55,876 bases of DNA from a bacterium (GTDB taxonomy: Bacteria > SAR324 > NAC60-12). Under the pieces are notes generated by a model. It was given only the letters and a program-made list of their open reading frames with translations, did not search any database and was not told the DNA's origin. The stretch covers positions 1 through 55,876 of the forward strand of contig CBDDTI010000581.1 in the NCBI GenBank assembly GCA_965233585.1. Direction: 5' to 3'. Shown here piece after piece: positions 2,267-27,162 of the stretch. How positions within the stretch are numbered: position 1 is the stretch's first letter; every line of letters starts with the position of its first letter. The translations under genes and the position numbers were made by a program.

Positions 2267-2272
2267 TCCCAT
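2267..2272. repeat. Left target-site duplication TCCCAT (partner at 26727-26732)
   Basis: Identical hexamer immediately outside both inverted termini; a 6-bp TSD is typical of Polinton integrases. The homopolymer end makes 5 versus 6 bp ambiguous. Confidence 0.82.
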
Positions 2273-2492
2273 AAAAAAAATGGTAAAAGGGGGATGCTAG
2301 GACATCCCAGCGTTTATTGTTGGTTGTTATGGTTTTTATGTTATTGTTCAATGTTTCTTCCTTATCTTTGATGTTTTATGTGGTGGGGGTTTTGGGACTA
2401 TTTTACCCCTAACTTTCACTTGATGGTTTGGTTTAAGATGAGGGGGATAATTGTTTAGACTGTTGGGGTTTTGTGTTTGTGTTTGGGCGGGT
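2273..2492. repeat. Left terminal inverted repeat of the PLV
   Basis: Reverse complement of 2320-2468 aligns to 26401-26550 (e.g. TCCCCCTCATC, AAGTGAAAGTT, AAACATCAAAG, GAAACATTGAACAA) and 2273-2304 aligns to 26697-26726. Confidence 0.85.
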
Positions 2493-2537
2493 GATTACTT
2501 CATAATATGTTTGGTTAAGATATTATGAATTAATATT

Positions 2538-3002
2538 TTATGCTTTCCACTTTCCTATTCCATCCCACCAGTTTTCAATTACTCTCATTTGTGTTAAGCA
2601 CGGTTTGTTTGTATCGTTTAGTTCATCCATCGCTATTGATAAAAGAATTATATTAATAACCATAGCGTAATAACCACCTCTTTTATTGAATTCTTTTCCA
2701 CATTGTATGATTATATCTTTATTAGTTAGGTTTTCATACATTCGTTTGATGATGTCAGGTTCTTTTTGTTTCCATATCTTAAACCGTTCTACATTACTTT
2801 CCTTAAATCTATCAAGGACAGATTTCCAAAAATCAAAGTCTTCACGAGATGGTAAGGGATGACACCTTACAAAGTCTCTAATCTCTTCATCTTCTTTTTC
2901 TATTGCTTTTCTTTCCCAGTCATCGTCCTCGCTTTCACTACCAAAGTCAGCATATAAACCAATATTACCTATATCTATAACCTCAATTTTTGCTCTACTC
3001 AT
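2538..3002 (-). CDS. PLV hypothetical protein (154 aa)
   Basis: ATG-initiated AT-rich ORF with an upstream TACTTAAAG motif; no recognisable domain. Confidence 0.7.
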   Translation of the reverse strand: MSRAKIEVIDIGNIGLYADFGSESEDDDWERKAIEKEDEEIRDFVRCHPLPSREDFDFWKSVLDRFKESNVERFKIWKQKEPDIIKRMYENLTNKDIIIQCGKEFNKRGGYYAMVINIILLSIAMDELNDTNKPCLTQMRVIENWWDGIGKWKA

Positions 3003-3253
3003 TTTCTCTTATTATATATAGTTATTTTTTCTTTAAGTATTTACCACTTTTTGTAGATACTCTTTTATTTCTTCTACATTAAAATATTTTTCATAACCAT
3101 TGAAAAGTTCTTCAGTGTATTCACGCAAAAATATTTCCAAAAGGGTGTGAAATAGTTTTAGGATTTTTTTTGAGCAGGTTTGGGAATTTTTTTTGGATTC
3201 CTTGGCTGGTACCATTTGCCTAGTGTTTGCAACGGTTTGGAACTTGAATTTGT

Positions 3254-3502
3254 CATTTTGCATGGTATTTGCCACATTTGGGCATGTTCACCTTCCATTT
3301 TGCATGGGATTTACTACATGTGGGCATGTTCACCTTCCATTTTGTATGGTATTTGCCACATTTTGGCATGTTCACCTTCCATTTTGCATGGGATTTCCTA
3401 CATGTGGGCATGTTCACCTTCCATTTTGTATGGTATTTGCCACATTTTGGCATGTTCACCTTCCATTTTGCATGGGATGTTCTACATGTGAGCATGTTCA
3501 CC
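3254..3502. repeat. 42-bp minisatellite (~6 units, alternating variants)
   Basis: Unit GGCATGTTCACCTTCCATTTTG(C/T)ATGG...; yields 14-aa periodic spurious ORFs. Confidence 0.9.
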
Positions 3503-3569
3503 CAAATATTTACAGATGCGGAAGCTTGGGATTAGATAAAAAGCGGGTGGGGGGGATTGAGGGAGGGCG

Positions 3570-4236
3570 CTAGCTATCTATCCAGCTAGCTAGCTATCTA
3601 GCTATCTAGCTAGCTAGCTATCTAGCAAGCTAGCTATCTATCTAGCAAGCTATCTATCTATCTAGCTATCTATCTACCTATCTAGCTAGCTATCTTGCTA
3701 GCTATCTATCTACCTATCTATCTAGCTAACTATCTATCTAGCTATCTAGGTATCTAGCTTTCTATCTATCTAGCTATCTATCTAGCCATCCAGCTGTCTA
3801 TCGAGCTATCTAGCTATCGAGCTATCTAGCTAACTATCTATCTATCTAGCTATCTAGCTTTCTATCTATCTAGCTATCTATCTATCTAGCCATCCAGCTG
3901 TCTATCCAGCTATTTAGCTATCGAGCTATCTATCTAGCTATCTATCGATCTAGCTAACTATCTACCTATCTATTTAGCTATCTATCTATCTATCTAGCTA
4001 TCTATCTAGCTACCTCTTTATCTATCTAGCTAGCTATCTATCTATCTAGCTATCTATCTAGCCATCTATCTATCTAGCTATCTATCTAGCCATCTATCTA
4101 TCGAGGTATCTAGCTATCTATCTCTCTATCTATCTATCTAGCTGGCTATCTATCTATCTAGCTATCTATCTACCAAGCTATCTATCAGCTATCTATCAGC
4201 TATCTATCTATCTATCTATTTATCTATCTATCTATC
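3570..4236. repeat. (CTAT)n/(CTAG)n compound microsatellite
   Basis: Directly visible. Confidence 0.95.
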
Positions 4237-4487
4237 ACATGTAATCCTGTCAGCTTTCCAGAGAAGGTTAGTTCGCAAAAACCAACTAATGTAACTTGGG
4301 TTTAAGTTTAAATAAAAAAAAGTGGGAGGGGGGATTGGGGGGAGGGCGCAGCGCCTCCCCCCAAAGCAGAATGCAAGCACCTCTTCTCACATGTTACGTT
4401 GCTAGTTTTCAAGAGAAGGTTGGTCATGTGATACTCAGGGATGTAAATACTGTGCAAAATGCATCTTACATGAAAATCAAGTATTTA

Positions 4488-4858
4488 AAGCAGGCAAAGC
4501 AAAAAAAAGCAGAGAAGCAAAAAAGCAGAGAAGCAAAGAAACAGGAAACGCACAAAAGCAAAACAGCAGAAAGGCAAAGAAGCAGGAAAAGCAGAAAAGC
4601 AGAGAAGCAGGAAAAGCAGGAAAAGCAGAGAAGCAAAGAAACAGGAAAAACAGAAAAGCAAAAAAGCAGAAAAGCAGAGAAGCAGAGAAGCAGGAGAAGC
4701 AGAAAAGCAAAAAAGCAGAAAAGCAGAGAAGCAGAGAAGCAGGAGAAGCAGAAAAGCAAAAAAGCAGAGAAGCAGGAAAAGCAGGAGAAGCAGGAAAAGC
4801 AGGAAAAGCAGGAAAGCAGAGAAGCAGGAAAAGCAGGAAAAGCAGAGAAGCAGGAATC
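4488..4858. repeat. AGCAG(A/G)AAA-type 8-9 bp degenerate tandem repeat
   Basis: Directly visible. Confidence 0.9.
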
Positions 4859-5517
4859 CAAAAATAATTCCTAAACCTGATCAAAAAAAAAATCCTAAAA
4901 TAATTAGCCCTCCTTTCCAAAATGTCTTTTACCTTAAACTCCCTATTTCTGAATGTATAAGTCCAATCGTTTTGAGGAAACCACCACTCCCATTTGTTCT
5001 TACAATACTTCATATATGTAAGGTCGTGAAAGTTTTTAAGAAAGTGATAGGTAGTTTTCCACTCCCTTTTCACAAAAGACTTAATCGCCATTAAGAACAG
5101 TTTGTCGTGTTTGAATTCTTGCTTGAGTTTGAATGTATCCATTAAAACATAAATTTCTCTTTTCATTTGCCGCGTGTTTGTTCGGTTCGTGTTGGATAAA
5201 TAAATAGGTGATTTCTCCATCCTTGTTTTAAAGAAATAGATTATCTTTTCAACTCTTGTCAGTTTTTTATCATTAAAATAGTCAAAATGATAATTGAAAT
5301 CTATGTATCTACGCTCCCTATCGTTTAAGCCTTTACATTTTTCACAGTGAAGGTTGTAATGACATATCTCATCACAAATTCCAGCGGGAAAAATATTGTT
5401 CAATAAAACCTTTAGGTTAGTCATTTCTTTCTAACAACATCCACAGTTTTTATAAGTAAATAGCATCCTCTTACTATATATAGATATTTTTTCTTTAAGT
5501 AGTTTTTGGGGGCTCGT

Positions 5518-5946
5518 TCAGTTTTCGGGTTCGGGTTGGTTTTTATTTTCCCTTTCCTCCTCTTCCAGTTCCTTTATAACCATATCTATTTCACTCATTC
5601 CTTCGTTGGGGTCTTGTCCATTGGCAAGGTTTCTTAACCTCTCAAAATCCTTCACTTTGTGTCTTTCGTTGGGTGGGAGGGTTTGGAGATGTTCCTTCAA
5701 CTCTGTCAGGTCAAAGTATGTGTCGTGTTCTTCATCCTCATTTTCCAAAAACATTTCCATTCGTTGCTTTTCCATTTCCAGAAGTTTGTTTTCCATCTGT
5801 TGGAATTTCATTTGTTTCTTGCCACACTTTCCACAAACATTCACGAAGGTTTTTAACAAATAATTCCAACTAGGTTTTTTGTAATCACCATTGTTTAAGG
5901 TGATACACTCACTCATAATACGACATCCACAGTCAAATTTAGTCAT
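5518..5946 (-). CDS. PLV hypothetical protein (142 aa, CxC and CxxC)
   Basis: ATG ORF with upstream TACTTAAAG motif; possible Zn ligands. Confidence 0.65.
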   Translation of the reverse strand: MTKFDCGCRIMSECITLNNGDYKKPSWNYLLKTFVNVCGKCGKKQMKFQQMENKLLEMEKQRMEMFLENEDEEHDTYFDLTELKEHLQTLPPNERHKVKDFERLRNLANGQDPNEGMSEIDMVIKELEEEERENKNQPEPEN

Positions 5947-5990
5947 CTTATTTACTCTTACTATATATAGGTGTTTTTTCTTTAAGTATA
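5947..5990 (-). promoter_or_regulatory. Candidate promoter class 1, TACTTAAAGAAAAAA-n-CTATATATAGTAAGAG (representative copy)
   Basis: Near-identical blocks at 3003-3039, 5467-5501 and 5955-5988; core CTTAAAG or near match also at about 21565, 21725 and 22728, each 27-37 nt upstream of an ATG. Confidence 0.65.
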
Positions 5991-6010
5991 TTTTTTATTG
6001 CTGATAATTT

Positions 6011-6031: not shown

Positions 6032-6973
6032 ATGGCAAGGAGACTATCAAGAGATGACATCATAAGCAATGTCTATTACAATCTTGAAACGGGCTTCGGT
6101 TCAATCAATGAGACCCTCAAGAAAGCCAAGGAACAAGACCAGACCATCAACAGGGTGGATGTGGAAAACTTTATGAGGAAACAGCCCAACAAACAGATTA
6201 GAAAATACAGGGGTTCAAACTCCTACACCGCACCATTCGCAAGGTTTGAGTATCAAATTGACATAATGGATATGAAACCCCTAACTAAAGAACCAGAGAC
6301 AAAAATTCCCATCAAGAACGACGAACCGAGATATGGGTTGGTGGTCATTGACATCTTCAGCAAGTTGGCAAACGTCGTCCCTATGAAAGAAAAATCCGGA
6401 CCAATCACATTATCGGCGATGAAAGATAGTTTCAACAAAATGGGTTTTCCGATGTCCGTTTATAGCGATAATGACCGTGCCTTCCAAGCGGGTGTAAAAG
6501 ATTTTTTTGAGAAAGAAGGCATCACTCACGTCGTCACCCTAACACACGCTAATGTTGTGGAACGTTTCATAAGGACAATGAAAAATATGATACACGACAG
6601 GGTCAGGTTTAATCGGGGCAGTTGGACTGTGATGTTGTCCAAAGCGTTAGATAAATACAACGACACCGTCCATTCATCCACCAAAATGAAACCCAAGGAT
6701 GCCCACGACGACAAAAACCATATGGACGTCAGGGTAAATTTGACAAGGAGGGAAAAGAACACTCGCAAATATCCAGAGGTCAAAGTGAATGATATGGTCA
6801 AGGTCTTTGAGAAGAAAAAAGACAACTACACCGAGAGGAAGGAGTATAACTCAAAGTGGAGCAATCAATCCTACAAAATCGTCAAGATAGAATACGATGA
6901 TGTCGGAAACAGAACCTTCAAACTGGAAGGATTGAACAAACCGTATTTGAGGCACGAGATTTTGAAAGTATAA
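6032..6973 (+). CDS. Retroviral-like (rve, DDE) integrase of Polinton type
   Basis: YQIDIMDM, LVVIDIFSK, VYSDND, VVERFIRTMK, YNDTVHSSTKMKP motifs; intact ORF. Confidence 0.95.
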   Translation: MARRLSRDDIISNVYYNLETGFGSINETLKKAKEQDQTINRVDVENFMRKQPNKQIRKYRGSNSYTAPFARFEYQIDIMDMKPLTKEPETKIPIKNDEPRYGLVVIDIFSKLANVVPMKEKSGPITLSAMKDSFNKMGFPMSVYSDNDRAFQAGVKDFFEKEGITHVVTLTHANVVERFIRTMKNMIHDRVRFNRGSWTVMLSKALDKYNDTVHSSTKMKPKDAHDDKNHMDVRVNLTRREKNTRKYPEVKVNDMVKVFEKKKDNYTERKEYNSKWSNQSYKIVKIEYDDVGNRTFKLEGLNKPYLRHEILKV

Positions 6974-6996
6974 AAAATTATCTATAATATTAATAT

Positions 6997-7341
6997 ATGA
7001 CAGAGGTAGTCGTAAAAGAGATTGATAATGAAGAACCCAAGGAAGAAACAATACCAGAGCCAACACAGGAAGAAGCACCGAAAGAAGAGGAGAAACCAGA
7101 AGAAATAATTGAACCATCCGTTGAAGAGAAACCGCAACCAGCCCCAAAGCCCAAAAGGGTAAGACCGTCAAGGGCGAAACCACCTTTTGACCCAGAAGCA
7201 TTCAAAAGCGACCTTGTAAAACAAATAAAGGAAGAACTACAAAGTGCGATGTCCGCCAGAGACACCTACAACAAAGCCAAAGAGGAAAAGAACAAAGCGA
7301 CGAGAGAGAACTTGAAATCTTTAGCATCAAAAAGTTTGTAA
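6997..7341 (+). CDS. PLV hypothetical Glu/Pro-rich protein
   Basis: ATG ORF in a tightly packed plus-strand array with TCTA upstream. Confidence 0.65.
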   Translation: MTEVVVKEIDNEEPKEETIPEPTQEEAPKEEEKPEEIIEPSVEEKPQPAPKPKRVRPSRAKPPFDPEAFKSDLVKQIKEELQSAMSARDTYNKAKEEKNKATRENLKSLASKSL

Positions 7342-7357
7342 AGTATTATATATAAAA

Positions 7358-7807
7358 ATGAACATCAAGGAACAGAAAATAGAACTCAACAAAACAGACA
7401 TCTACGAAAACGTCCGCAAGGACATCAACAGAAGACAAACCGTCCATTCAAACAAAAGTGCCAACTACCGGAGCGGAACGCCCGAAATGCCAGACAGAAG
7501 AAAAAAAGTGTATAGTAGTTATGACCACTACTACCACAACGACAGCAACACGGCAAGGATGCCAACTCACAACCATCATCTTTACCTAAAGCGCCTTCTT
7601 GAATATCACAACACCGAGCACGATTACAAAGTCTTACAAGTAAAGCAGAGGATGAAGGAAGAGAATGAGATGCTACAGAACGAAATGACAAGGTTGAGGG
7701 AGGTGAGGAAAAATCACAGATTGGAAGATTACGGGGCGAACGTCCAGAATATGAAACAGAGAATTGATGAGTATAAACAGTGGTTGAGAGGCGATACACA
7801 AGATTAA
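7358..7807 (+). CDS. PLV hypothetical coiled-coil protein
   Basis: ATG ORF, tight packing. Confidence 0.65.
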   Translation: MNIKEQKIELNKTDIYENVRKDINRRQTVHSNKSANYRSGTPEMPDRRKKVYSSYDHYYHNDSNTARMPTHNHHLYLKRLLEYHNTEHDYKVLQVKQRMKEENEMLQNEMTRLREVRKNHRLEDYGANVQNMKQRIDEYKQWLRGDTQD

Positions 7808-7837
7808 TATAAAAATCTCAACTATTAATATATAGCA

Positions 7838-9133
7838 ATGACAGCAGAAGTAATCAACGCAAAACAGGGATTGACACGAATACCCACTTACGCAGAACTC
7901 ATCAAGGAAATAGACAGGGAAAAGTTCAAAACCAATGACATCAGAAAAATCTTTGATAGGAACGCTTGGTATTTTCACGAAAGTCCGCAGGGTCAAGCAC
8001 TGAACACAAACAACATCCACCCAGCAGACTTACAGCAAATGAACTTCAAACAGATGGCAGAGGAAGCGACCGCAAGGAAGGAAGAAGAAACACCCAACCT
8101 TGACTTTGAAGGTATGACAGACTTGAGGGACGACGCCATCAGCGACTTCGAAATGTCCTTTGACAGAGAGGCAGAGTTGAGGGAAGAGAACGAAAGGAGA
8201 GTAGCAGAACAAGCAAACTTAAGTCATTCACAAGACCACTATATGGCAAACAAAGGGGCATACGACGCCGTTGGAGCAACGGCATCGGCAGGGATACAAG
8301 AAGACGAAGAACCGCCTTCAAGCAGTAGAAGCATCTTAAAGAAATTCCTTAAATCATCCAAACCAGTCATCAAAGCAGTCGCCACAGCAGGAGGAACAGC
8401 AAAGGGAGGGTCAATAGGAGGACTAATAGCATCAAAACTGACAGACGCCATCATACCCGACGAAGACGAGGAAGAGAAACCGTCCAAGATAAAACCAACA
8501 CAAAAACTAATCAACAAACAAGTCAAAAAGGTAAATCACCAAAAGAAGTTAAAGGAGGAAAAATCAAAGATGAACGTGGATGTAGTGCCCGATGTCAACG
8601 AACCAACGGATACAACAGCAATACCAACAGCAGAAAAAAGGAAGCCCTTAAGCGTGAGACAGTCCAAAGCAAAGAGGCAGAAACCAAAACCGCCAACGCA
8701 GGAGAAGAGAGAATTTCATGAAGACCCATCCACAACCACCAAACCACCCAAAGCAAGAAGAGTAAGAGGAAAGCAACCCCAACCACAAGCATTAGGAGCA
8801 ACAATCAACATCCCCAAAGACAACAAGACACCCAATGTAGATGAAGCAGAGACAGCACAGGAAGAAACAGGGGCGTCATCTTCATCAAAAGCACCAGTCA
8901 GGAAACCAACAATGAACAAAGCAATATCGCCAAGCAAGGTAGGAATACAAGTGATAAGAGAGAAGTTTGAAGAGATGAACAACAGCAAAAGCATAGACAC
9001 AGGAGACTATCAAAGGTTTCAAGAGGTATATGGTAAATGGAAATCAAGCAAGGGAGAGGATAAGAAACAGCATCTAAAGGAAGCGAAGGAACTTTACAAG
9101 TCAATCATCTATCCAAAATTAAAATCAAAATAA
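7838..9133 (+). CDS. PLV hypothetical low-complexity protein (431 aa; possible core/virion protein)
   Basis: Long ORF, acidic N-half, basic C-half, glycine-rich hydrophobic segment AVATAGGTAKGGSIGGLIA; function is inference. Confidence 0.7.
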   Translation: MTAEVINAKQGLTRIPTYAELIKEIDREKFKTNDIRKIFDRNAWYFHESPQGQALNTNNIHPADLQQMNFKQMAEEATARKEEETPNLDFEGMTDLRDDAISDFEMSFDREAELREENERRVAEQANLSHSQDHYMANKGAYDAVGATASAGIQEDEEPPSSSRSILKKFLKSSKPVIKAVATAGGTAKGGSIGGLIASKLTDAIIPDEDEEEKPSKIKPTQKLINKQVKKVNHQKKLKEEKSKMNVDVVPDVNEPTDTTAIPTAEKRKPLSVRQSKAKRQKPKPPTQEKREFHEDPSTTTKPPKARRVRGKQPQPQALGATINIPKDNKTPNVDEAETAQEETGASSSSKAPVRKPTMNKAISPSKVGIQVIREKFEEMNNSKSIDTGDYQRFQEVYGKWKSSKGEDKKQHLKEAKELYKSIIYPKLKSK

Positions 9134-9180
9134 TTAATAAGATTATTCATTATAATTTTATTAATTATCCACTATCATTT

Positions 9181-10581
9181 TTAGTCATAGAAAATGACAG
9201 ATTGGGCTTTTATCTCCAAGATACATTCGTGTTCAATAACGATATACATTTTGTCAGGCATCAGTCCAGTATCAGTCCCGTTGTCTGTTGTATATAGGTC
9301 TGTTCCATACAATGGCTTAACACGGACAACCATATTTGAATTGTTCTTCAAATTCAGTCCAGTGTAATTGGCACTGTTGAGTTTCTTGAGGTTGAACCCC
9401 GCTAAAAAGGAATTCGTCCTATACATATGAGGTTTGATTGAAACGTGATTGTTTCGTGTTTCTTGAAGATGCTTGTAGTTGTCAGCAACCCCCATCGTTG
9501 GCATTTCGGGTATGACAGTATTACCAATACTTAACTGAAAGGATAAATCAATATTTTCATAGTATCTTTGAGCAATTGATGTTCCGCTTTCCCACGAAAG
9601 GGGATGATAAAGAAGGTTATGAGGTTTCAACACTTCTTGGAAACCGCCCTTATAACCAAAATTTGAATAGAAAGATATGAATATGTTGTCTGCTTTACTG
9701 ACATTTCTAACTATTGTCGTGAAGATGTCGGCGCTTCTACTTGTTGTTTGGGTTTGGACGGAAACACTGTTGAAGGTTATAGGTAAAGATTGCTTTTCCA
9801 AAATTTCAGCATACTCCGCAAATAAACCATCATCAAGTCGGTGAATATCACAGGTGATGATGGGTTGCTCTATGTTCCATAAGAACGAAGTATTCGTTGT
9901 AGTAAAATCACCACTTAAATTAATGAGGGGTTCATTAGCATCACTGACCAAAGTTAGTTCAATGACAATCGGACAGTATGATAAAGGAATGAAGTTTGAT
10001 ACATTGAAGAAGGGACAAGAAGGTCGGTAATAAACGGTCTTTTTGTTTTTAAACCCTCCGAAATTGTCAGGTTTCGCTTGGTCAATGACATTCTGGACTG
10101 TGTTTGAACCTGGGTTCGTTGCCAACTGCGTATATGTCAAAAATCTATTTCCTTCATTATAGAAGGTCTCACCAAAACCTAAATTGTCAGTATAGTTTCT
10201 TGAACCGTCATCTTGTAAAATATCCATCATTGCTTCATAACGGTTTAAGTCAGGAATTTCAGCAATAACATTTGAACCCGCCATCACTCGCATTCTTTGA
10301 AAAAATGAGGATGGTTTATAGGCAGGTCTCAACTCTTTTGTTCCGTCATTGTCGGCATTGATGAGGGTAAAACCTATCAAAAGACTTCGCAGATTTATCC
10401 ATTCATTTGCTCCACCAGTTAGATTAAAACGGATGACATTGTTTGAGTTGGATGAGTAAGTAGAGACCGAAGAAGGGTAGAATGTTTTGATACGTTTGTC
10501 TCTAATGTAGGACGCTCCACCTTTTAGTCTATACCGAAGGACATTTCCATTGAGAACATCTGTAATTTCTAATGCTTCCAT
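9181..10581 (-). CDS. Major capsid protein (double jelly-roll, PLV type)
   Basis: 466 aa, beta-rich. IRFNL..WINLRSL, FFQRMRV....IAEI, FIPLSYCPIVIELTL and C-terminal YTGLNLK patterns resemble PLV MCPs; lies near mCP and ATPase. Confidence 0.8.
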   Translation of the reverse strand: MEALEITDVLNGNVLRYRLKGGASYIRDKRIKTFYPSSVSTYSSNSNNVIRFNLTGGANEWINLRSLLIGFTLINADNDGTKELRPAYKPSSFFQRMRVMAGSNVIAEIPDLNRYEAMMDILQDDGSRNYTDNLGFGETFYNEGNRFLTYTQLATNPGSNTVQNVIDQAKPDNFGGFKNKKTVYYRPSCPFFNVSNFIPLSYCPIVIELTLVSDANEPLINLSGDFTTTNTSFLWNIEQPIITCDIHRLDDGLFAEYAEILEKQSLPITFNSVSVQTQTTSRSADIFTTIVRNVSKADNIFISFYSNFGYKGGFQEVLKPHNLLYHPLSWESGTSIAQRYYENIDLSFQLSIGNTVIPEMPTMGVADNYKHLQETRNNHVSIKPHMYRTNSFLAGFNLKKLNSANYTGLNLKNNSNMVVRVKPLYGTDLYTTDNGTDTGLMPDKMYIVIEHECILEIKAQSVIFYD

Positions 10582-10887: not shown

Positions 10888-11578
10888 TCACATTATCTTG
10901 TTGATTGGTTCTGCCACATTCTTTTCTGACTTTCCCATATCTCCAAAATGGACGGCGTGAAAGCCGTGATTGTATAAAGGATTATAACTGTTCTTATTGA
11001 CTGTTATATCCACGCCTCTGTCAAACATACTGACTGGGTCGCCTACTGCCCTGAACCTCGTGTTCTTACTGTCAGTGTTGTCATTAAAACTTACGGTTGG
11101 TGTTCCATAGGTTCTGGTGGTAAATCTTTTGTTATAGTCTTGGTTCAGTTTCATCGTTGTTGCTGAACCCAAGGAATGACTGACAATTGTATCAACATTA
11201 TCAATGTTGTTTCTGATGAAGTCGTTTGCGGTCTTATACCGCTTTGACCTATGAACCATATGAAAAGGAATGAGTGTGTCGTCGCGGAAAATCTTTCGTC
11301 CCCGCTATGTAAAGCGTTTTATTCTCTGGGTGGTGGTATAGTCCTAAATTTGTTCTGTTATTGTATGCCCTCTTTAGTCCCGTCTCGTCGTTGATGTTGC
11401 TGAACTCCTCCAAGTATTTGTTTCCCCGTTGTATCTCCTTACTGAATTTCTCCAACAATTCCTTTTGTTTGTTGTTGTGTTTTTTGTTGTATTCTTTACC
11501 GTCAATCTCTTCAAAGGGGTTTATTCTTTGTAGTCGTCCCTGTGTTTTCATATCATCCATCAACCTTTTTTGAAGCAT
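10888..11578 (-). pseudogene. Lipase / alpha-beta hydrolase, frameshifted
   Basis: LYIAGTKD in ORF 11249-11656; nucleophile elbow IVSHSLGS and GDPVS in ORF 10888-11259; split near 11260-11290. Confidence 0.78.
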
Positions 11579-11630
11579 ATATAATAATGTATAGAAAAAT
11601 ATAATTTCTAAAGTTATTATATCATAATAA

Positions 11631-12458
11631 ATGAGTAGATTTAAAAAGATATACATAGACAGCCACCACCGAACCCAGAACTCTAACAGTAGCAGTGATT
11701 TTGAAATCTATTTACCCGAAAGTCAAGAATGCGGGAACGACACCAAACTCTACATCCACGAAATCACCATACCGAATTCCATTTATCCAGTCTAAGCGGG
11801 GTTGAACAGCAACCTTTACTTAAGACTGACGGATTTTTCAAACACTACGGATGTTATAATTGAACTGTTGAGTGCTTCCTATGTAGGTGCTACATTGGCA
11901 TCAAACCTTCAAACAAAGATGAACGAAGCAACAAACGGGTTTCAAGCAAACAACGATTATTTCAGTGTATCTTACGACTATGACACCAACAAAATAACCA
12001 TCACTTTAAACTATGTGGATTTTTCGTTCAAGATAATGACCGACTATGAGATGGAGTATAACACCATCCAATGGACGGGAACATCTTATGACAGAAATAA
12101 CTTAAAATCCATCAATCAGGTTTTAGGAAACTACACCTCATCGTTGAACTATCCAGATTGGAAAAGCGGGTATTTGACATTATTAGCGTTGAGAAATTTA
12201 TACCTTACTTGTAGTGAATTGAGCGACGCTAAACAATTAGGTTCTACGGGTGCTTACAACATCGTTAAGAAAATCCCGATTAATGCCCCCTTCGGTTCAG
12301 TCATCTATGACAATGAAATCATCAGTGTTGATTACATCAATGTTTCAAATAGAGTGTTGAGAACACTACACTTCAAATTGGTCAATAGTTATGGTAATGT
12401 TGTTGATTTGAACAATGTGAATTGTTCATTCTCCCTGACCTTCATTGAGGACGATTGA
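11631..12458 (+). pseudogene. Minor capsid (penton) protein with premature stop
   Basis: ATG 11631 gives MSRFKKIYIDSHHRTQNSNSSSDFEIYLP, in frame with ORF 11802-12458 across TAA at 11793-11795; C-terminal LHFKLVNSYGNVVDLNNVNCSFSLTF resembles PLV mCPs. Confidence 0.8.
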
Positions 12459-13451: not shown

Positions 13452-13569
13452 ACTATTATATATTTATATATATATAATTATTTATTTAGATATATATTTA
13501 TTTAGATATTTATTTATCAATTTGCTTTCACGCAAAATCTACTCTTTTCACCATTTTGTGAGAAACTTT

Positions 13570-17529: not shown

Positions 17530-17552
17530 AAATCTAAAATCATATATACACA

Positions 17553-17759
17553 ATGGGCAATTCAAACAGCAGTGTTGAAAACGACTACCTTGAACAAATC
17601 AAAAAGATAGACGAAGACGAAAAGACCCGAACAGATGTTTTACTCATCAAGAGCGTAAAAGAGTTGGTGGGAAGAGTGGAGAAACTGGAAAAGGAGAAAC
17701 AAAACAAACTGATATATCAACTACCGAAACTACAACTCTGTAATTGGAGTTTGATATGA
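17553..17759 (+). CDS. Small protein with possible N-myristoylation site
   Basis: Starts MGNSNSS (MGxxxS); conserved in the duplicate at 42672-42878. Confidence 0.6.
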   Translation: MGNSNSSVENDYLEQIKKIDEDEKTRTDVLLIKSVKELVGRVEKLEKEKQNKLIYQLPKLQLCNWSLI

Positions 17760-17791
17760 ACAATTGATAATATTATTGTTAAATAATATTA

Positions 17792-20700
17792 TTAATTGGA
17801 TAATGAGTAGTGCCCATAGGGCAGACTGTCAGTATCGTTGAACCAATACCTTTTGTTGTCATAAGATGTTAAACCGACCTTGCTTTGGTTTATACTGTAG
17901 ATTTGGTGGTTCTTACTTCTGATGGCATTGAAATTTACATTCTTTGGTATGTGTTCGTGGAGTGTTGCCTCATAGTCTTTCATATCTAAATCCCTTTTGA
18001 CTTTCAGTTTTGGAACACCCTTTGCTTTCTTTTCTGCTTTCTGTTCGTTGAAGACTTTTAGACAATACATTTTAGGACGTAAAGCAATGAAGTTTGTGAT
18101 GATTTTTCCATCCATCTCGTCCTTGAACTTGCCAAGGACTTTTTTATTAGTGGCATCATAGCAAGGGTGGTTCTTATCATAACCGCTGAAGTCCATATAA
18201 TCCTTTATTCCTTTCCAATCTTCATAGATGTCTTCGGTGAAAGTTTGTATAACATAACTGTCGGTGTCAGTATATATCAGTCTTACATCATCCTTATACT
18301 TTGCTTTTAAGACATCATAGTAGAAAGAATACATATGAACCTTTGAAAGGTCTAAAATTAACATTCCCAAATAGATAGGTTTATCCAACTTCAATACAGT
18401 TTTTGTTTTTCCCACTCCTGCCAGTTCTTCATTTATAATATGACATCCTTTGTAGTTAGGATTGTTGATACATTTTTGTATCCTCTCCTGCGTTGATACT
18501 AATTCAAAGTCAATGTGGTTTCTGACATTCTCCATCGTTTTGCCATAAACGGCGTTGTTCATCAATTTGAACATATCCTTCTCAAAGTCGCTCTTCGCTA
18601 CTTTTCTTTTTTCAGTGTTAAAATCTATCCAAGGTTTCAACCAACATCTCTGTTTGAACTTCACCCCACGATGAACTTGTTTGATTTTCATACCCTTTTG
18701 AAGGTAAAACTGTAATGCCTTGATATGGACTACATAGTTGGGTTTATCCATTTGGTTTAGGATAAGTTTTGGTTGTTTCTCATCCCGTGCCTCCTTGCCA
18801 TTATAGTAATTTCTATGTAGTTCCCTTTGGTGCTTTGAAAGTAGTTTCTCTTCAACCTTCATATTTTCAGGTGCTAATGGGTAATCCGCTTGTTCGTCCT
18901 GTATCTCCTTTGGATACTCTAAATCAACTTCCAGTATGTAGGCATTGTCATCGTTTTCATTCCAGTCCATTATCATCTTTTCTGTCAGTATCTTCTTTAT
19001 CCACTTCAGTTTTCCTATGGGCAGTTTCATTGACATTGCCAGTCCATAGAGGTTATTAGCATCTAAATAATTGATATAATTAGATGGTCTGTTTTTATCA
19101 GTCGTCCATCATATACTTATTATTTGCTTTTGCTTCCTTATGACTTACTTGACACATACCACCTCTCAAACCCTTCTCAATCATCTCATACATCTCTTGG
19201 TCAGTTAAAGGGTCTATTTCAACACCAGTTTTTAGAAGCATAGCGTCCCAAGCAAAGTTAGGAAGGGTGAAATAATGTGCTGGGTCTAAACCGTAGTATT
19301 CCAAACAAAGGTCTCTAAAATTTTCAAAGACATCAGTGAGTAAAAGAACATCGGTTCTCAAATACAAGTCGTGGTATTGACCAAGATTTCTTATACCGAA
19401 GTGTTCCCATATCCTTTGTGCCCTTTCATACTCATCATCTTCAATATGACTTTCGGTAAGATTGCTGTAAAAACTTTCTTTTGGTGGTAGTTGTTTTTCC
19501 CTAAATTTGTCAAATGAAGTGAAGTAATCATAAGGATAAACACCTTTATCAGTTAGTAAATCTAAATCCTCATCATTACTCACATAAGGGTTTCTTTTGC
19601 TAAATTTGAAGTTGTTTTGCCAGTTTTGTTTCTTCTCTCCGTCTTCATACTTACTCAACTTCACCAACTTATGAAAGAAAAACTGTCTTTGAAACAAAGA
19701 TTTTAAATGCGAATGTTATGAACTTCTCACTATTCTGTGCTATTACATCTATCTTACCCCTTTCTGATAGTTTATTTGCCCTCTCAATGATTAAATGACT
19801 GTCATAGTTCTTGAGGTTATGAAGGAAAACGGGGATTTTATAATATCTCATTGAAAACTGTAAATTACAATCATCGTGGGCACAACCCCTATACTTACCT
19901 GTAAAATGACAATGGTCTCTAACCTTTTTATCACCTTCTTTGAAGTCTTTACCACATATAAAGCATTTCTTTGCGGTTTTAAAGTCCCTCCAGTCATCTG
20001 CCCTCATAATGATTTCCTTGTTTTCCTTCATTTTTTCCATTATCTCATTTTTGACTTCAATAATCTTTTGGATAAAAACATCCATACAATCCTCCCCTCT
20101 GTGAAGGAAAGGCTTTGATGAACCATCAATTGAATTGACAACATTTATCATAAAACCGTAGGGTCTGTGATGTTGGTATTTATCAGTCTTAACTTCTTTA
20201 GTTGAAACTGTCCCCGTCCTTGTGGTTAAACATTCAAAGTCAGCATAGATGACAAAAGGTGCTTTCAACTTTTTATAGTGGTTCTTGAAAACCATAATGT
20301 CGTCTTCATTAGGCATTTCTATCTGTTGCCCTTCAACTGCCATACATCCCTTTTCATTGTGTTCATCTAAAAGTTCCTGTGATTGAAAACCCGTGTCGGC
20401 AGTGAAAACAATGATAAACTTTTGCTTTGTGTTTGTTGGTTTGGCATCCTATCAACTTGTCATAATCTTTGATGAATACATAATGGTAATCATCCCCATC
20501 CTCCAGTTTCAGAAGACTGATTTGATGAGTTGCTCTTTGAACCTTGGTCTGTCTGTAAAGTAGGATGTATTGTTTCCATTCTTCGGGGTCAATAAAATAA
20601 ACATTGACTGCTACTTTCCCTCCATTGTTTTCTTCAAATGTATCTATATCAACATCTGATGACGGAAAATTGACATTATCCCACTTCAACTCATCATTGA

Positions 20701-21688
20701 GATTTTTGTAGTGAGAAACTCTTTCGGGATGGTCTTTTTCATAAACCTTTCATATACCGCATTGAACGGAATACTTGAAACATAGTTCATCTTGATTTTT
20801 GATGTTGATACACGCTTTTTTGTTTGAAACCCATTTAGGTAATGGAATGAACTTACCCCCACGAGTTGGATTGTATTTGTCATAGTTAAACTTTATTTTG
20901 TCAATCTGGGTTATGACTAATCCACTCTCCGACATTTCCATCACCTCCGCTTGGTGCTCTACATCACTTGCCATCTGGCTCAATACGTTAGGTATTTCAC
21001 CTTCGTTGGTGATGTTGTATCTTCTACTCTTGATGACTTGTCTTACATCTTCGTTGGTCTTTTTGCTCTTCAAAGTGGCGAAGACTTATAGCATAACCTT
21101 CATTCCATTATGTTTCCTCAAATACTCTTTTAACCTCAAACCTTGGTATTTTAGATATTGTAGTGCTTTGATGCCTCTTACCCTGATGTTTGTGATGGCA
21201 TATGAATTGGCATAACCTTTGAAAGCAGACTGTTCGTTGGTGGTGGTTGCTTTGTATCTCATTTGAATACCTGTGAGTGCTTTGTTCTTGTCAAGATTGA
21301 CCCACCTAATGCCTTTCTTTTCCTTCAGTTCATACTTTTTGTAGTCCATAGTCTGCTTAATCTTGTTGAATTTTGTTATTAACCTCTTTGATATGGGTTT
21401 GCCCCTTTCAAAGTTGCAGGTCTTGTCTCCAATCTTGAGTTTCTTGAGTTCCTGTCCATTCCGTTTCAATATCTCACCCTGTTCGGATGATAAAAGATAA
21501 TCTAAAACAATCTGCTGTGAAGTGTCCATTATAGTATAATCTATATCATTATAATCTTCTGTTTCTTTAAGTAGTTTTTCAGTTTCCATTGTTTGTTGAG
21601 GATGTTGCGGTTGATTGGATTGGTTGTCAGATTGATTTTCAAAATAAAAATTTTCTGTTGAATGTTTCAACCTTGTATCCTCTGCCAT
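17792..21688 (-). pseudogene. Protein-primed family B DNA polymerase (pPolB), multiply frameshifted
   Basis: Exo motifs VIYADFEC, HNLKNYD, YLRTDV; Pol motifs YLDANNLYG, KLMNNAVYGK, YTDTDS; Zn insert VRDHCHFTGKYRGCAH. Spread over at least six ORF pieces; true start may be ATG 21529. Confidence 0.95.
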
Positions 21689-21830
21689 TTTCTCCTTAAA
21701 ATATGAAGTAATATATAGTTATTTTTTTAAGCAATTGTGGGTTCTCGTTCACTTTTTGGGTCATTGGGTTCTGGGTTGAAGTCCAACGTGAGAACACCAG
21801 AATTGAATTTGGGAAAAATGGTTTAAAGAA

Positions 21831-22343
21831 ATGGCAACTTATGGTAAATATAGGTGTAAATATAGGTATGAAAACGGAGATTTAGAAAATAACACTGGAC
21901 ACAACAAAGCCTATGTAGGGAGCACTTGCGAAAGTTTGAGTAAAAGAATTGAGAGGCATAGAGCAAAATACAGTTCTTACAAAACAGGAAAAACAAATAA
22001 GAATGTGTCAGCGATTGAAATATTTGATGAGTTTGGTATTGAAGATTGTAAGATTGAGTTGATTGAAAACTATCCCTGCAATTGTAAGGAAGAACTATTG
22101 AGACGAGAAGGGCACTACATCAAAAGCATTGATTGTGTCAATAATGTCATTCCACATAGGATGGAAGAAGAGAGAAAGGAGGTGGCGCGGGAATACTACT
22201 ACAAAAATAAAGAAAAGATATTAGAGAAACACCTTGAAAAAATGGAATGTCCTTTTTGTAAGCATGTAATGTCTCAATACTATGTTCCAATACATCAAGG
22301 GTCAAAAAACTGTGTCAAACAGACGAAAATGAATAGTGAATAA
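21831..22343 (+). pseudogene. GIY-YIG endonuclease, degenerate at N-terminus
   Basis: YVGST..LSKR..H, IELIENYPC, EELLRREGHYI, VN. The first motif reads ENGKI*KI in the duplicate copy and is indel-disrupted here. Confidence 0.8.
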
Positions 22344-22369
22344 AACGTTCTCAATAAACAGAATCGTTG

Positions 22370-22699
22370 TTATTGAGAAGGTTTCGGATTTAAACAGTGG
22401 GTTTGTTTGCTCATACATCTTTTGGTTTGACGGTGTTTTGAAAGATTGGATTTACTACTGATTACCTGTCCGCAGTCTGGGCATTGGAAGGGTTTTGATA
22501 GTTTCTTCTGATAGCATTTTGAAAAATAGTCTGGGTCTAATGGTTTCTTGTCATAATTTCCGTCAGGTTTCCATCGTGTGGTTGCTTGGGCTGGTGGGTT
22601 GTGGGGGTTGTTGGATTGGTGGAGTGCTTCAACCATTTGGTCAAAGACGTCTTCGTCCATTTTTTGCTTCTTTCCATCAATTACCATATAGCCGGGCAT
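22370..22699 (-). CDS. C2H2-type zinc finger protein
   Basis: CPDCGQVISSKSNLSKHRQTKRC. Confidence 0.75.
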   Translation of the reverse strand: MPGYMVIDGKKQKMDEDVFDQMVEALHQSNNPHNPPAQATTRWKPDGNYDKKPLDPDYFSKCYQKKLSKPFQCPDCGQVISSKSNLSKHRQTKRCMSKQTHCLNPKPSQ

Positions 22700-23923
22700 A
22701 ATTTACTTTTTATATAAGGCGACATTTCTTTAAGCGTCTTTGCTTTTTGCTTCGGGTAGTCGTTTTGGCTTAAAATAACACGTGTCCTGAATGTAGCGTA
22801 TTTGAGATTAAAAAAAGATGGTCTCAGGACACTTGTTGAAAAATGTTTTTTGTTGTCAAGTCGTCATACATTGTCGTTTTGTCCTCATCAGACTTGAGCC
22901 TTTAGCATCCCAGTCGTCTTGTATGCTATTCATAGTGGATAATCATGTGTGACCTTATATTTTAAGATGGACGGTGTGCTTTCTATCACAACCCCTTCGT
23001 TCCCCGCCCAAAAAACTAACTTTTGTATCTATGTAAAACCAAGACAAGAGAAAATCCAATTTCCTCCAAACAAATAACACATAACCTTTTTGAATCCTCG
23101 AGGAGGTCAACACTCCGCTCCTCCGCACGTTTTCTGACAGGGTGAATGCAAGCGACTGGATGCATGTATATCATCATGGTATAGGTAAATAGATGTATTG
23201 TTGTGTGAAATTACGTACTGTAAAATAGCTATAACATTGTATATGTGGTCTTTGTGTGAAACCCCCATCTCCACTTCAAACTTAAAAGTTCTATCTCAAT
23301 CCTTCTCCACTTCTACCCTTCAGAGTTCTCGCAACACACCTTTTGGATCCTTTTGGAAATCAGAGCCGATGATGACTTCATGACCTCAGATGGGCTTGTG
23401 GGATATTGAGTTGCGCTTTGAAAATGGGAGACCAAAAACATAAAATGAAGAGTTCTCGTTGTGTATGGTTGTGTTTGTCATCCTTGTCAAGTGCTGGTTG
23501 TCTCAATGTATCGGTTCAAAAACTGTCCACAGCGAAGCCAAACACCCTTTTTCCATCCTACGAAGGTCTCTGAATGTGTTGATGCCCTGTTCATTTGGCA
23601 ACGCAACACCGGCAAATCAAAAAGGGTGAACATGGCATCACTGTCTTCGGCTTTGTCAGGACACTTCTTATGCAACATTGACTTCAGAGCACCACACCGC
23701 TTTTTTGCCCCAGTCAGAAAGTCATTCAGTGACGAGGTCAATCAAGCATTCGGCACGGTTGGTCAGAACATCCCGCTGCTCCTGCAGGAAAAGTCAAGTT
23801 TCCATACGGCACTCGGGGAAAGTTGAAGTTTGGGAAAAATGAAGTTTCCCAGTGGGAAAATTCTTGAAGTTCATGGGAAAATGGGGTGGGAAGCGCTCCA
23901 CTCCAACCCTGTCCTCAAGGTGC

Positions 23924-26168
23924 TTAGTCGACATCATCACCAAGCCAAGTTAGGAGTTGTTGCAAGCCGCCTAACATGTCTCTTGCTGCCTCCTGCCACT
24001 ACTTGAGCTACTCGTGCATCCACAATGGGACTGTTGCAATTTGGAGCAAGAAGAACGCCAATTACTGATTTTACCGGCGATTCCGCGTTCTGCACCGTGT
24101 GCTTCACTGCGTTCACATTCTGGGCAAAATTTGAAGCCTTTTTCTTGCAGGTTTCTGCGTTCGTAGCTCCAGTCACATCCAAGAGCACCTGCCAAGTTAC
24201 AAAACATACAAACACATGCAAACAAAGACTGAAATGACGGAATACTGTTTGTTTGCAACACATTCAGCCTTCCAACTGAGCTCAGGACTAATTCATCTGC
24301 TTCGGTCTTGAACCAAATGTCGAAGCCTTTGTGCGTGCCAGCCGTGCCACCTTCTGAAAGCGCGTGATACATGACACCATCCTTTATGCAGCGGATACCA
24401 TCAATGCAGGGGTCTCCCTTCTTTGTGAAGACTCTTGCGTTCTTCCCATCGACTTGTTGCAATCCGTCTCGTATTTCCTTGCATTGAAACTTATATGTGC
24501 GAGGCTTGCTCTCAAATTTAAAGTCGTTCTGTTCCTTAGCCGCTTTGCAGGCAAGAGCCCACAAATAAGCTCGCTCTAAAAGCATACCGTCACACCAACT
24601 CCCAGATTCCATCAGAGATGAGCAGAATACTTCTTGGGCTTTCCTAAAGACTGACGAGGCTTTATCCCTGGCATCTCCAACTGCCATCAGCGTCTCCAGC
24701 GAAAGAGTCAGCTTCCGGTTGTCCAACGAGATCACTCCCGCATACCTTCTGTCCTCTGCCCGGGCATCTTTTATGCCCAACAACAAGTCCACTGCTCCTG
24801 AGACCTGTTCATCTAGATCTGGCAAAGCGACGCTAAAACTTCCAAGAGCTCCAATGAGCTTGCTCTCCAGGTTTCCCTCTTTGTCAAGCTGGTCCTGGAT
24901 GTTTCTGAAAGTTCTGCGCAGGTCGCTCTTCTCATCCTGCGGAATGTGGAGCTGGTCAAGACCAATGTGCACAAGGAAAAGGCTTAGCTTGACTCGCAAA
25001 GTTGCGAGCAATCGTTCTTCCTTGCCACCCCAGCCTTCGGCAGGAAGTTTGATTTTCGGCAATCCTGCTGCCGTGGCAGGTGCAGCATCTGAAGCGTCCC
25101 TGGTCAACAAGGGGCTCACATCTACTAGCATCATGGCAATTGGAAAGCGGCAAACCTGCGACGAACCCTGTGCGGCTAGATCCGGCGGTTCGAGGTAGGT
25201 GGCAATCACCTTACACATCTGTGGAAGTGAGCCAGCCAAAAGCAGCGCTCCTCGCCTGAATTCAGGAGATGTGCTCATGGAGCGGTGCTCGTCGATGTGG
25301 AGGAGAAGGCGGTTGCTGGCGTTTCTCTGCAAGAACTTGTCAACCTCCTCTGCAAATTTTGCAACTGTGGTTCGCAAGTCTGGCAGTGGACTGGGCAGCT
25401 GCCATTCAGTGCCAAGATACTCTCCATTCATCTGCCTCCTGAAGCAGTGGAGCATGAAGTCAGCACCAGCCCGCTCCAGTTCATCGGTCTCCAAGCTACG
25501 CGGCGCTGGGCTGTGACCTCGTGCAAACATGAAACACATGAACATCCCGACAGAAAGTGGACAAAGGAAAGCAAAAGGAAGCACACTTCCAATTAAAATG
25601 CAGGCTGGTTGCAATTCCAATCGTTATTGGCAAATGGCATGTAGAGGTAGTGGGTGAAACAATGCTGGCTCCCCAGTTCCACACTTCGACAGAATATCGG
25701 CAGGATGGCAGCAGACTTGCCACGCATGGTTGGAGCTGAAAGGTAAGCCACTCGGTCTCTACGTTTGTTCGCATGTTCCAAGCGGCTGACTGCGACATTT
25801 AACTCTTTACCTCTACACAAATAGGGTTGTGAGTAGAGCTTGCTGACTCCATCTGTGCCTTCTCTCACTGGTAGGGATGCTTCATAACTCTCGCATGTCT
25901 CCAGCAGCGGGATGTTTGCCGTTTTCATATTGGTCTCAAAGGCATCCTTTGTCCTCTGAGCCAAGCAATCAGTGCCACCAGGTACTTCGTTCCACCAGTT
26001 TGACGGGCGACAGCAACCGGTGGTTTTGCCCGTACCAAACCCCCGTTTCCACGGGTCAAGACCAGCAAAACCCTGCGATGAGCAAATAAAGTTGCACGCA
26101 ATCCAAAGCAGTAAGGCTCTCACAAGAAGGCATGACTGCCGACGCAATGGAACTTGACGACCCCCCAT
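23924..26168 (-). CDS. Intron-containing Crinkler/RHS-like P-loop NTPase + restriction-endonuclease-fold protein (this copy frameshifted near the C-terminus)
   Basis: Hydrophobic N-terminal leader; Walker A-like YLSAPTMRGKS; Walker B LLLHIDEH. A GT-AG intron at 24189-24288 restores GFDIWFKTEADEL|VLLDVTG; a second intron is likely at about 25520-25605. Family assignment is inference. Confidence 0.65.
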
Positions 26169-26384
26169 GGCACAGTCTGAACTTGAAACAGAATTAGTGC
26201 TACTTTGCTGCCGAACTTGAGCGCAGAGCCGGTTCCATGTCTTCTGTTTTTGATTTGCTCTTGCGCTGCTCGTTTCAACACTAGTTGTCTTGGCACAAAT
26301 TCAGAATATCCGGGCCGCCCGACATTTGAAGCGAGAAGTCGAAGACCACAAAGCCGGTGTTGAGTAGAGAAATATCCAAGACAA

Positions 26385-26726
26385 AACCATTTTCGAAAAA
26401 ACACAACAGTAACAACAAACCTCCCCCTCATCTGAAACCTAACACTGAAGTGAAAGTTCGGGCAAAAAAGTCCCCAAATCCCCATAGGAAAAAAACATCA
26501 AAGGTAAAAATGAAACATTGAACAACAACATAAAATCATAACACCCTCAACAAAACCTACCCTCATTCAATCCAAACATTATTACAACAACCTCAACAAA
26601 ACATTTAGCAAGATAATCAAAAAGAACAGTCAAACATTTCAGATTACAAGATTGAACAAAAACATAATAGCCTCCCACCTAACCTCCAACCTGTCCTGTC
26701 CTAGTTTCCCCCTTTCCCCATTTTTT
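26385..26726. repeat. Right terminal inverted repeat of the PLV (with ~140 bp extra segment)
   Basis: Inverted homology to 2273-2468; 26550-26690 has no counterpart on the left. Confidence 0.82.
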
Positions 26727-27162
26727 TCCCATGCTTCCCGCCTTGGCAGTCTAAATGCCCACCACAATTGCAGAGCTTCACGGCAGGGGTCTCATTCAGT
26801 AGCGAGTGGCCTGCACAAAACCATTTTGGATCGCAACAAAGCATGATTTTTATGGAATCGAAGGGATATTAGCCGCAAAAATTAGGATAAAATATGACAG
26901 AATGTTGTGACTACATGCACTGGGATATAATAAAAATTAACCAACAAAAGTTGTGGCATGGGTCAAAGTTGAAGGTCAAACCAAAAAATGATGGATCACC
27001 CAAGTTTCAATAGATCAATGTTTGTAAATTACTCGACATGTGGCTCTAGGTGGAACATGTGAGCAGTGTTCAAAAACCTCTGTCGTGCCCAAATTTTCTT
27101 CTTGGTAACCGGATTCCCCTGATGGATTGTGATATTCCCCATAAGAATACATACATACATAC

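Follow-up and report, generated by a model that had tools for sequence, protein, structure and literature searches.

We analysed a stretch of 55,876 nucleotides, probably an entire contig (CBDDTI010000581.1 of assembly GCA_965233585.1; "the window" below means this whole stretch), which holds a well-bounded but decayed endogenous Polinton-like virus (PLV). An earlier note, written by a model from the letters alone, had presented the element as complete, with resolved ends and an unusual gene set.

The element proper occupies 2273-26726 (24,454 bp). It is AT-rich, starts on the left with A8-TGG and finishes on the right with CCA-T6/7. The hexamer TCCCAT stands on either side of it, the 6-bp target-site duplication that is looked for in a Polinton; the first T of the hexamer is indistinguishable from the terminal T run of the element. 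The outermost ~30 bp of both ends are inverted copies of each other, and a 159-bp stretch at 2317-2472 matches the reverse complement of the right end at 78% identity (E 4e-31). The right inverted repeat is the longer of the two because it contains an internal duplication of ~130 bp. With repeats of ~200 and ~330 bp at its ends, the element falls within the ~14-40 kb expected of PLV genomes with terminal inverted repeats. The G+C content drops from ~0.50 in the flanks to ~0.35 within ~2,300-23,000, and the host level is regained by ~23,500. The boundaries and the duplication proposed in the earlier note were right, as the hexamer copies and the matching inverted ends show. Rfam and ARAGORN each returned 0 RNA genes. 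The features are collected in Table 1.

Table 1. Features of the element and of its partial second copy, in window coordinates
Feature	Position	Strand	Basis or remark
Target-site duplication TCCCAT, left copy	2267-2272	.	read directly in sequence
Left terminal inverted repeat, ~200 bp	2273-2472	+	self-comparison: 139 nt at 76%; 124/159 identical, E 4e-31
ORF, 154 aa; promoter-like motif upstream at 3013-3037	2538-3002	-	no family match; PDB matches noise
Three tandem-repeat arrays in left arm	3254-4864	.	42-nt x5.9; 12/16-nt CTAT-type x42-56; 8-nt AAAAGCAG x42
ORF, 315 aa, only first ~190 aa protein-like; promoter-like motif 5475-5499	4477-5424	-	no family match
ORF, 142 aa; promoter-like motif 5962-5986	5518-5946	-	no family match
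rve-type (retroviral-like) integrase, 313 aa, apparently whole	6032-6973	+	Atlas features and weak, uniform matches
Three ORFs (114, 149, 431 aa), last rich in K, E, P	6997-9133	+	no family match
Major capsid protein, 466 aa, whole, double jelly roll	9181-10581	-	predicted fold
Lipase-like gene, two overlapping frames	10888-11656	-	G-x-S-x-G-like motif by eye
Penton (minor capsid) gene with in-frame TAA 11793-11795	11631-12458	+	fold of relative
C5 cytosine DNA methyltransferase, small, 210 aa	12426-13058	-	PF00145 1.6e-5, over cut-off
Two ORFs (120, 143 aa), second with zinc-ribbon-like CxxC pattern	13089-14001	-	sub-threshold matches only
A32/FtsK-type DNA-packaging ATPase, 227 aa	14547-15230	+	Pox_A32 4.2e-11
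Fibre gene, 39-nt coding repeats and C-terminal S74 self-cleaving chaperone domain	15263-17529	+	Peptidase_S74
Protein-primed family-B DNA polymerase with endonuclease-VII/HNH insert, ~1,300 codons	17795-21688	-	PF03175, Endonuclease_7
GIY-YIG-like nuclease, 170 aa, marginal	21831-22343	+	PF01541 1.5e-4
C2H2 zinc-finger protein, small, 109 aa	22370-22699	-	zf-C2H2 1.3e-5, over cut-off
Right-arm gene, ~650-690 codons, GT..AG intron ~24189-24273	23561-26168	-	host-like G+C 0.51
Right terminal inverted repeat, ~330 bp	26397-26726	-	holds internal ~130-bp duplication
Target-site duplication TCCCAT, right copy	26727-26732	.	read directly in sequence
Partial second copy, matches 16093-26726 of copy 1	41210-55804	+	interrupted by satellite block 44723-48594

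Capsid, packaging and integration genes

The candidate major capsid protein could not be assigned by sequence: the window protein had no Pfam match, phmmer against the PDB gave 0 matches and a PDB profile search gave 2 noise matches, and Pfam run on the 68 aligned relatives returned one Capsid_N (E 0.0026) and one DJR-like_dom (E 0.022). Since assignment at the sequence level failed, its identity was settled solely by the predicted fold. The alignment of 68 sequences, made up of the window protein and 67 near-full-length relatives (10 of 39 matches and 57 of the 150 listed), yielded an AlphaFold2 model with a predicted local distance difference test score (pLDDT) of 86.4 and a predicted template-modelling score (pTM) of 0.88. 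When this model was compared with the PDB by Foldseek, the best match over the whole length was PBCV-1 Vp54 (E 1.2e-16, TM 0.56-0.68), and further fold matches included the SGIV (grouper iridovirus) capsid protein, Sputnik, PRD1 P3, and vaccinia D13. At E<=1e-3 the PDB yielded 166 matches, Sputnik ranking 29th, and BFVD yielded 131, mostly giant-virus capsid proteins together with virophage, adintovirus, and MELD-virus proteins. By predicted, not solved, fold, 9181-10581 is the double-jelly-roll capsid protein that a PLV should carry, and the candidate named in the earlier note came through structure prediction with the fold it needed.

The minor capsid gene carries a TAA where its relatives, 275 aa long, have Q. 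We modelled a 97%-identical relative, P0068, together with 14 others (15 of 38 matches), and obtained a model of moderate confidence (pLDDT 68) that matched minor capsid or penton proteins of Tetraselmis viridis virus S1, mavirus, Qinghai Lake virophage, giant viruses, and adomaviruses. At E<=1e-3, 51 BFVD matches were found. The single-jelly-roll penton of a PLV is accordingly present through the P0068 model, and the window's own gene has the nonsense codon. As for the minor capsid protein of the earlier note, the penton fold was upheld and the intact frame was not.

The remaining viral genes were assigned by family searches. The packaging ATPase expected of a PLV scored 43.2 bits against a cut-off of 22.8 for Pox_A32 and matched a PHROG terminase large subunit (1.6e-11). 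For the integrase, the matches were consistent yet individually weak: the top Atlas scores were 0.98, 0.98, and 0.97 (222/256 features in common), PF00665 occurs in 76-91% of the members of three of the Atlas clusters listed, all six PDB matches were retroviral integrase catalytic cores (E 0.07-1.5), and a PHROG transposase matched at E 0.006. The protein-primed family-B polymerase was recognised through PF03175 (1.2e-6; 28.2 bits against a cut-off of 25.8) in the fragment 19101-19715, and the same gene contains an Endonuclease_7 match (3.5e-6). In 17795-19108 we spotted by eye what we take to be motifs of the KxxxNxxYG and YxDTDS polymerase types. The methyltransferase also matched a PHROG DNA methyltransferase (4.7e-17), and the fibre gene matched Peptidase_S74 (9.9e-10, within 16474-17529) and a PHROG tail fibre (2.1e-13).

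All of these assignments (ATPase, integrase, polymerase, C5 methyltransferase, and S74 fibre) agree with those made in the earlier note from the letters alone, and so does its overall description of an integrating PLV, as the rve-type integrase, protein-primed polymerase, double-jelly-roll capsid, penton, and packaging ATPase are present. For the GIY-YIG nuclease the PF01541 match is marginal, at 22.4 bits just under the Pfam cut-off of 22.6, with a PHROG homing endonuclease at E 0.0084. The class-3-type lipase found no backing: for 10888-11656 there was no lipase or alpha-beta-hydrolase match in Pfam at E<=1, in PHROG, or in the PDB at E<=10, a search made less sensitive by the frameshift in this gene, and what is left is the motif seen by eye.

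Replication module, capsid module and alternative classifications

Like the Polintons/Mavericks (Polintoviricetes), the element has a protein-primed polymerase, an rve integrase, inverted repeats, and a 6-bp duplication, along with a double-jelly-roll capsid protein, a penton, and an A32-type ATPase. Unlike them, it showed no adenain-like cysteine maturation protease. None of the 121 stop-to-stop open reading frames (ORFs) of >=60 aa matched a cysteine-protease family in Pfam at E<=0.05, a search that a very divergent protease could escape; the sole family named "peptidase" among them was S74, in the fibre. PDB searches of three ORFs without a family (2538-3002, 4477-5424, and 5518-5946) also found no protease. 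The earlier note, too, had recognised none.

Could the element be a canonical Polinton whose protease is too divergent to be seen and hides among the ~10 ORFs without a family? The polymerase and integrase, inverted repeats, and duplication do make up the Polinton module, and the nine or ten ORFs in question, which received no family assignment from Pfam or PHROG, were probed by sequence-profile methods only. The empty result across all 121 ORFs and the three PDB searches speak against it, and so does the documented combination of an rve integrase and duplications without a protease in the PLVs of Rhodomonas lacustris cluster C2 (PMC12220804). A reduced morphogenetic module is typical of another class, Aquintoviricetes, in the classification quoted in the same paper (PMC12220804). 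We consider a canonical Polinton quite improbable and describe the element as a PLV that couples a replication and integration module of Polinton type with a reduced capsid module.

Mavirus-type virophages carry an rve integrase, a protein-primed polymerase, and a GIY-YIG nuclease, and the mavirus minor capsid protein was among the matches of the penton model (E 3.9e-8). The window element differs from them in that its capsid fold matches are led by giant viruses, no protease was found, and its lipase is unconfirmed. The combination of a virophage-type capsid and a cysteine protease that would place it in the Maveriviricetes was not found: Sputnik stands only at rank 29, behind giant-virus proteins, and no protease was detected.

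A related proposal is that the living element depended on a giant virus, as a virophage-like satellite does, and lacked the autonomy of a virus or transposon. That giant-virus capsid proteins outrank the virophage ones in the capsid fold matches and that no protease was found both argue against this, and nothing in the window bears on co-infection. In its favour, virophage proteins are included in the fold matches of both capsid and penton, the lifestyle has been proposed for some PLVs (PMC12220804; PMC10120064), and a promoter-like motif is shared upstream of several genes, with 3 matches versus 0 expected. On balance a satellite seems unlikely to us, and we retain the PLV reading without it.

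The motif, CTTAAAGAAAAAATANCTATATATA, lies on the minus strand upstream of three left-arm ORFs (Table 1). Looser versions occur near 21700-21740 and 22710-22740, upstream of the polymerase and the C2H2 gene, and most other genes have a TATATA-type run right before the ATG. The second of the three left-arm ORFs has a low-complexity tail because the AAAAGCAG array runs into its 3' part.

From what the sequence displays directly, namely the families of its genes, a predicted capsid fold, inverted repeats, and a duplicated hexamer, an intact ancestor can be pictured as follows. It would have been a linear genome of ~24 kb with terminal inverted repeats, replicated by its own protein-primed family-B polymerase. 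Its DNA would have been packed by the A32-type ATPase into an icosahedral shell made of double-jelly-roll capsid trimers and penton vertices, and the shell may have borne a trimeric fibre that matured via its C-terminal S74 chaperone domain. The rve-type integrase would then have put the genome into host DNA, leaving the 6-bp duplication.

Lesions and the partial second copy

This copy of the provirus is dead. Nonsense codons interrupt the penton and the polymerase, and frameshifts affect the polymerase, the fibre gene, and the lipase-like gene. The polymerase lies in six pieces, with stops at 21086-21088 (TAA) and 20750-20752 (TGA) and frameshifts near 20400, 19700, and 19105. The fibre ORF and the S74 ORF are one gene, whose frame changes near 16265 in copy 1 and reads through in copy 2. 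In the lipase-like gene the frame changes near 11250-11300. The capsid, ATPase, and methyltransferase genes are whole, and the integrase gene is apparently so. The element called complete in the earlier note is so in its ends and not in its genes, at least four of which are broken (polymerase, penton, fibre, and lipase-like gene). An alternative genetic code was considered and rejected: the polymerase stops are two different codons (TAA and TGA), and the other genes end normally under the standard code.

The right part of the element is present a second time in the window. The region 41210-55876 matches 16093-26804, so that the right flank continues to the window end, and the 78 bp past the element's right end are identical in both copies. 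Copy 2 starts abruptly within the fibre gene, at the point matching 16093. Over 9,374 aligned bases, substitutions amount to 0.78%, and the copies are further set apart by private indels and by indels of 27 nt and 16 nt. A 3.9-kb satellite block (44723-48594) interrupts the polymerase gene of copy 2 at the equivalent of position 19598; it consists of 8/16-nt repeats of CATCTTCA type, 7.9 copies of a 72-nt unit, and 165 copies of the 16-nt unit GTCTGTGTGTAAAAGC. One patch, 25472-26100 versus 54513-55173, is far more divergent, with clustered substitutions and 3- to 13-nt indels, which suggests exchange with another member of the right-arm gene family. The earlier note's gene map had overlooked both this second partial copy and the host-like right arm described below.

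Because the right flank is identical, both copies descend from one insertion, and the host segment was duplicated later. These observations point to copy 2 being a segmental duplication after insertion (possibly tandem, with a unit of ~25.1 kb) or a mis-join. In the former case, a host segment holding the right 10.6 kb of the element plus flank would have been duplicated, after which the copies would have diverged by ~0.8% and gained private frameshifts, and copy 2 would have acquired its satellite block. Copy 2 is probably truncated by the contig end, not by biology.

The mis-join needs separate consideration, as two haplotypes or dispersed repeats may have been joined in one contig during assembly. 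The window, apparently an entire contig, stops within the shared flank, repeats are frequent sites of contig breaks and mis-joins, and microhomology at the 41209/41210 junction extends to a few bases at most. The substitutions, the private indels, the 27-nt and 16-nt indels, and the 3.9-kb satellite block nevertheless separate the copies, so that they cannot be one pile of reads used twice and must be distinct loci or alleles; moreover, the identical flank implies one insertion event whatever the arrangement. We regard an assembly artefact as a rather unlikely source of the second copy, though one to be kept in mind, and favour duplication after insertion.

Comparison of the copies also dates some of the lesions. 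Both polymerase stops are present in both copies and are therefore older than the duplication. Copy 1 alone has the polymerase frameshifts near 20390 and 19100, and copy 2 has others of its own. A still functional provirus, with stops and frameshifts that are long-read assembly errors, would fit the whole capsid, ATPase, integrase, and methyltransferase genes and the fact that, of the 10 indel sites inspected in the comparison of the copies, 5 fall within runs of a single base 2-6 nt long. However, all three nonsense codons (penton TAA, polymerase TAA and TGA) are substitutions, and the copies share the two in the polymerase; other indels, of 2 nt, 16 nt, or a complex kind, do not fall in homopolymers; and identity between the inverted repeats is no more than ~78%. 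Assembly error cannot explain these three codons or the 2-nt, 16-nt, and complex indels. We judge a functional provirus to be highly improbable and hold to a dead copy. The pair is a small natural experiment on decay after insertion, with its private frameshifts, satellite invasion, and hyper-divergent patch.

Right arm, host and relatives

The right arm (~23,500-26,400, ~3 kb) has a G+C content of 0.51, compared with 0.52 in the host carboxylesterase exon of the left flank and 0.31-0.44 in the viral genes. Its single gene contains a GT..AG intron of ~85 nt, and splicing in silico restores homology to an intron-less distant relative. The gene of copy 2 (~52576-55240) aligns continuously with relatives, and that of copy 1 is broken near 25545-25600 and near 23989. 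Relatives of this gene are multi-copy, in clusters of 98 and 108 members at 93-95% identity, and the named ones belong to Cladocopium goreaui (89% identity) and Symbiodinium necroappetens (67-70%). In one gene model of C. goreaui the gene forms part of a fused 1,232-aa 'RING-type domain-containing protein'. No Pfam domain was found in the right-arm gene or in 9 relatives. Its best Atlas score was 0.84, and the leads, all below 0.85, go toward ATPase families, with a faint feature-level resemblance to STAND/AAA-type ATPases. Either the element took up this gene from its host as cargo, or the gene is a nested insertion.

Because the named relatives come from Cladocopium and Symbiodinium, a dinoflagellate host is supported, as the earlier note had guessed. 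A cryptophyte host was considered for the likeness of the element to those of Rhodomonas (PMC12220804) and was dropped, the named relatives being Symbiodiniaceae.

Taken together, these results make it very probable that 2273-26726 is a fossil Polinton-like provirus in the nuclear genome of a Symbiodiniaceae-type dinoflagellate. Several points weigh against this view. The inverted repeats are only ~78% alike and their exact inner limits are soft. The integrase stays below the Pfam threshold (rve_3 E 0.081), and the C-terminal part of the polymerase, 17795-19108, had no Pfam or PDB match, so that it stands on the motifs seen by eye. The penton model, at pLDDT 68, is that of a relative and does not represent the interrupted gene of the window itself. 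Assembly error could account for several of the indels that distinguish the copies, those located in short homopolymers. Finally, the host name is drawn solely from the relatives of the right-arm gene.

The element has many close kin. Its capsid is 97% identical to the representative of a 412-member cluster from public assemblies, in which the penton cluster has 424 members. With more than 400 near-identical sequences in each cluster, the family to which the element belongs is very abundant, and its host is of Symbiodiniaceae type. The suggestion that the lineage might be undescribed is not sustained by this cluster, nor by the literature, in which PLV capsid genes of Symbiodiniaceae have already been counted (PMC10120064): a 'Dino group' of endogenous capsid genes was defined there, with 38-353 capsid genes per assembly in 13 Symbiodiniaceae assemblies (Table S1; Bellas et al. 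2023, PMC10120064). Four 10-residue strings of the window capsid were absent from supplementary file 2 of that paper, a comparison of short strings only, and two Symbiodinium capsid fragments in its Table S2 resemble the window capsid by eye only, which gives a lead (PMC10120064). Full-length proviruses of Symbiodinium and Polarella have been described with inverted repeats, polymerase, rve integrase, GIY-YIG, and ATPase, many of them colonised by introners (Gozashti et al., PMC11957031). The PLVs of Symbiodiniaceae and Polarella share with the window element the host group, AT-rich insertions, and terminal inverted repeats (PMC10120064, PMC11957031), as well as genes for capsid, ATPase, protein-primed polymerase, rve integrase, and GIY-YIG or other endonucleases; their host introns and introners are comparable to the intron of the right-arm gene (PMC11957031). 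In Breviolum, the Maverick/Polinton repeats are the class most enriched in 5-hydroxymethyluracil (PMC11071213). More widely, endogenous PLVs form a measurable share of dinoflagellate genomes and have been linked to chromatin marks, domain boundaries, and intron-generating transposons (PMC11071213, PMC11957031).

Two further groups are informative. The PLVs of Rhodomonas lacustris cluster C2 (Bulzu et al. 2025, PMC12220804) resemble the window element in their rve integrase, in duplications of ~6 bp in most members, in the lack of a capsid-maturation protease, and in S74-tipped fibres and free-standing GIY-YIG genes. They measure ~22 kb, deviate by ~14 points of G+C from their host, and occur in hundreds of copies (PMC12220804). 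They differ in the host supergroup (cryptophyte) and in their variable replication genes (PMC12220804), and the likeness is one of description only; the window element has a polymerase with an endonuclease-VII/HNH insert. The gene set called unusual in the earlier note is, on this comparison, in print: S74 fibres and GIY-YIG and HNH nucleases are reported from cryptophyte PLVs, and so is an rve integrase with duplications and without a protease (PMC12220804). OmPLV of Oxyrrhis marina is likewise a fragmented, endogenised dinoflagellate PLV of ~25 kb in low-G+C regions (Haro et al. 2025, PMC12721341), described as drifting toward a transposon-like state (PMC12721341). It has a fused SF1 helicase-polymerase of ~1,500 aa (PMC12721341), whereas the polymerase region of the window had no helicase domain match in Pfam.

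The element is a well-resolved yet fairly ordinary example of insertions already known to be common in these algae. Elements of this kind, the host group, and the majority of the accessory genes have been published before, and it opens no new question. Because both ends, the target-site duplication, and all genes of this copy are mapped, it can serve as a reference for annotating the family in Symbiodiniaceae. Three of its features deserve to be retained: how it was duplicated, the spliced gene of host-like composition in the right arm, and the shared promoter-like motif. It is conceivable, if unlikely, that the right-arm gene is a regular cargo, host-adapted, host-spliced, and present in hundreds of copies, of a recently very active PLV lineage of Symbiodiniaceae. 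Were this true, the virus would have domesticated, or been colonised by, an intron-bearing gene of host type that is carried between genomes, with the core genes of the family driven by their own shared promoter motif, and coral symbionts would offer a tractable case of virus-mediated gene and intron traffic.

The flanks hold features of their own. On the left, the carboxylesterase exon (1-669, minus strand; PF00135 3.4e-48, profile positions 3-150 of 515) is a host exon for the N-terminal part of the protein and lies ~1.6 kb from the element's left end. On the right, a retroelement-like region (27163-34659) contains three consecutive minus-strand ORFs of 1,006, 449, and 620 codons, among which a reverse transcriptase is weakly matched (E 2e-4). 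Two direct copies of a 172-bp repeat are found at 27163-27334 and 28149-28319 (99.4%). At 35116-36876, a C-rich/A-rich satellite (TACATACAT x119) is followed by nested inverted arrays of the 23-nt unit TTTGGGAATTTTTGTCCCCAACT, whose arms reach 117 nt and are 80-98% complementary.

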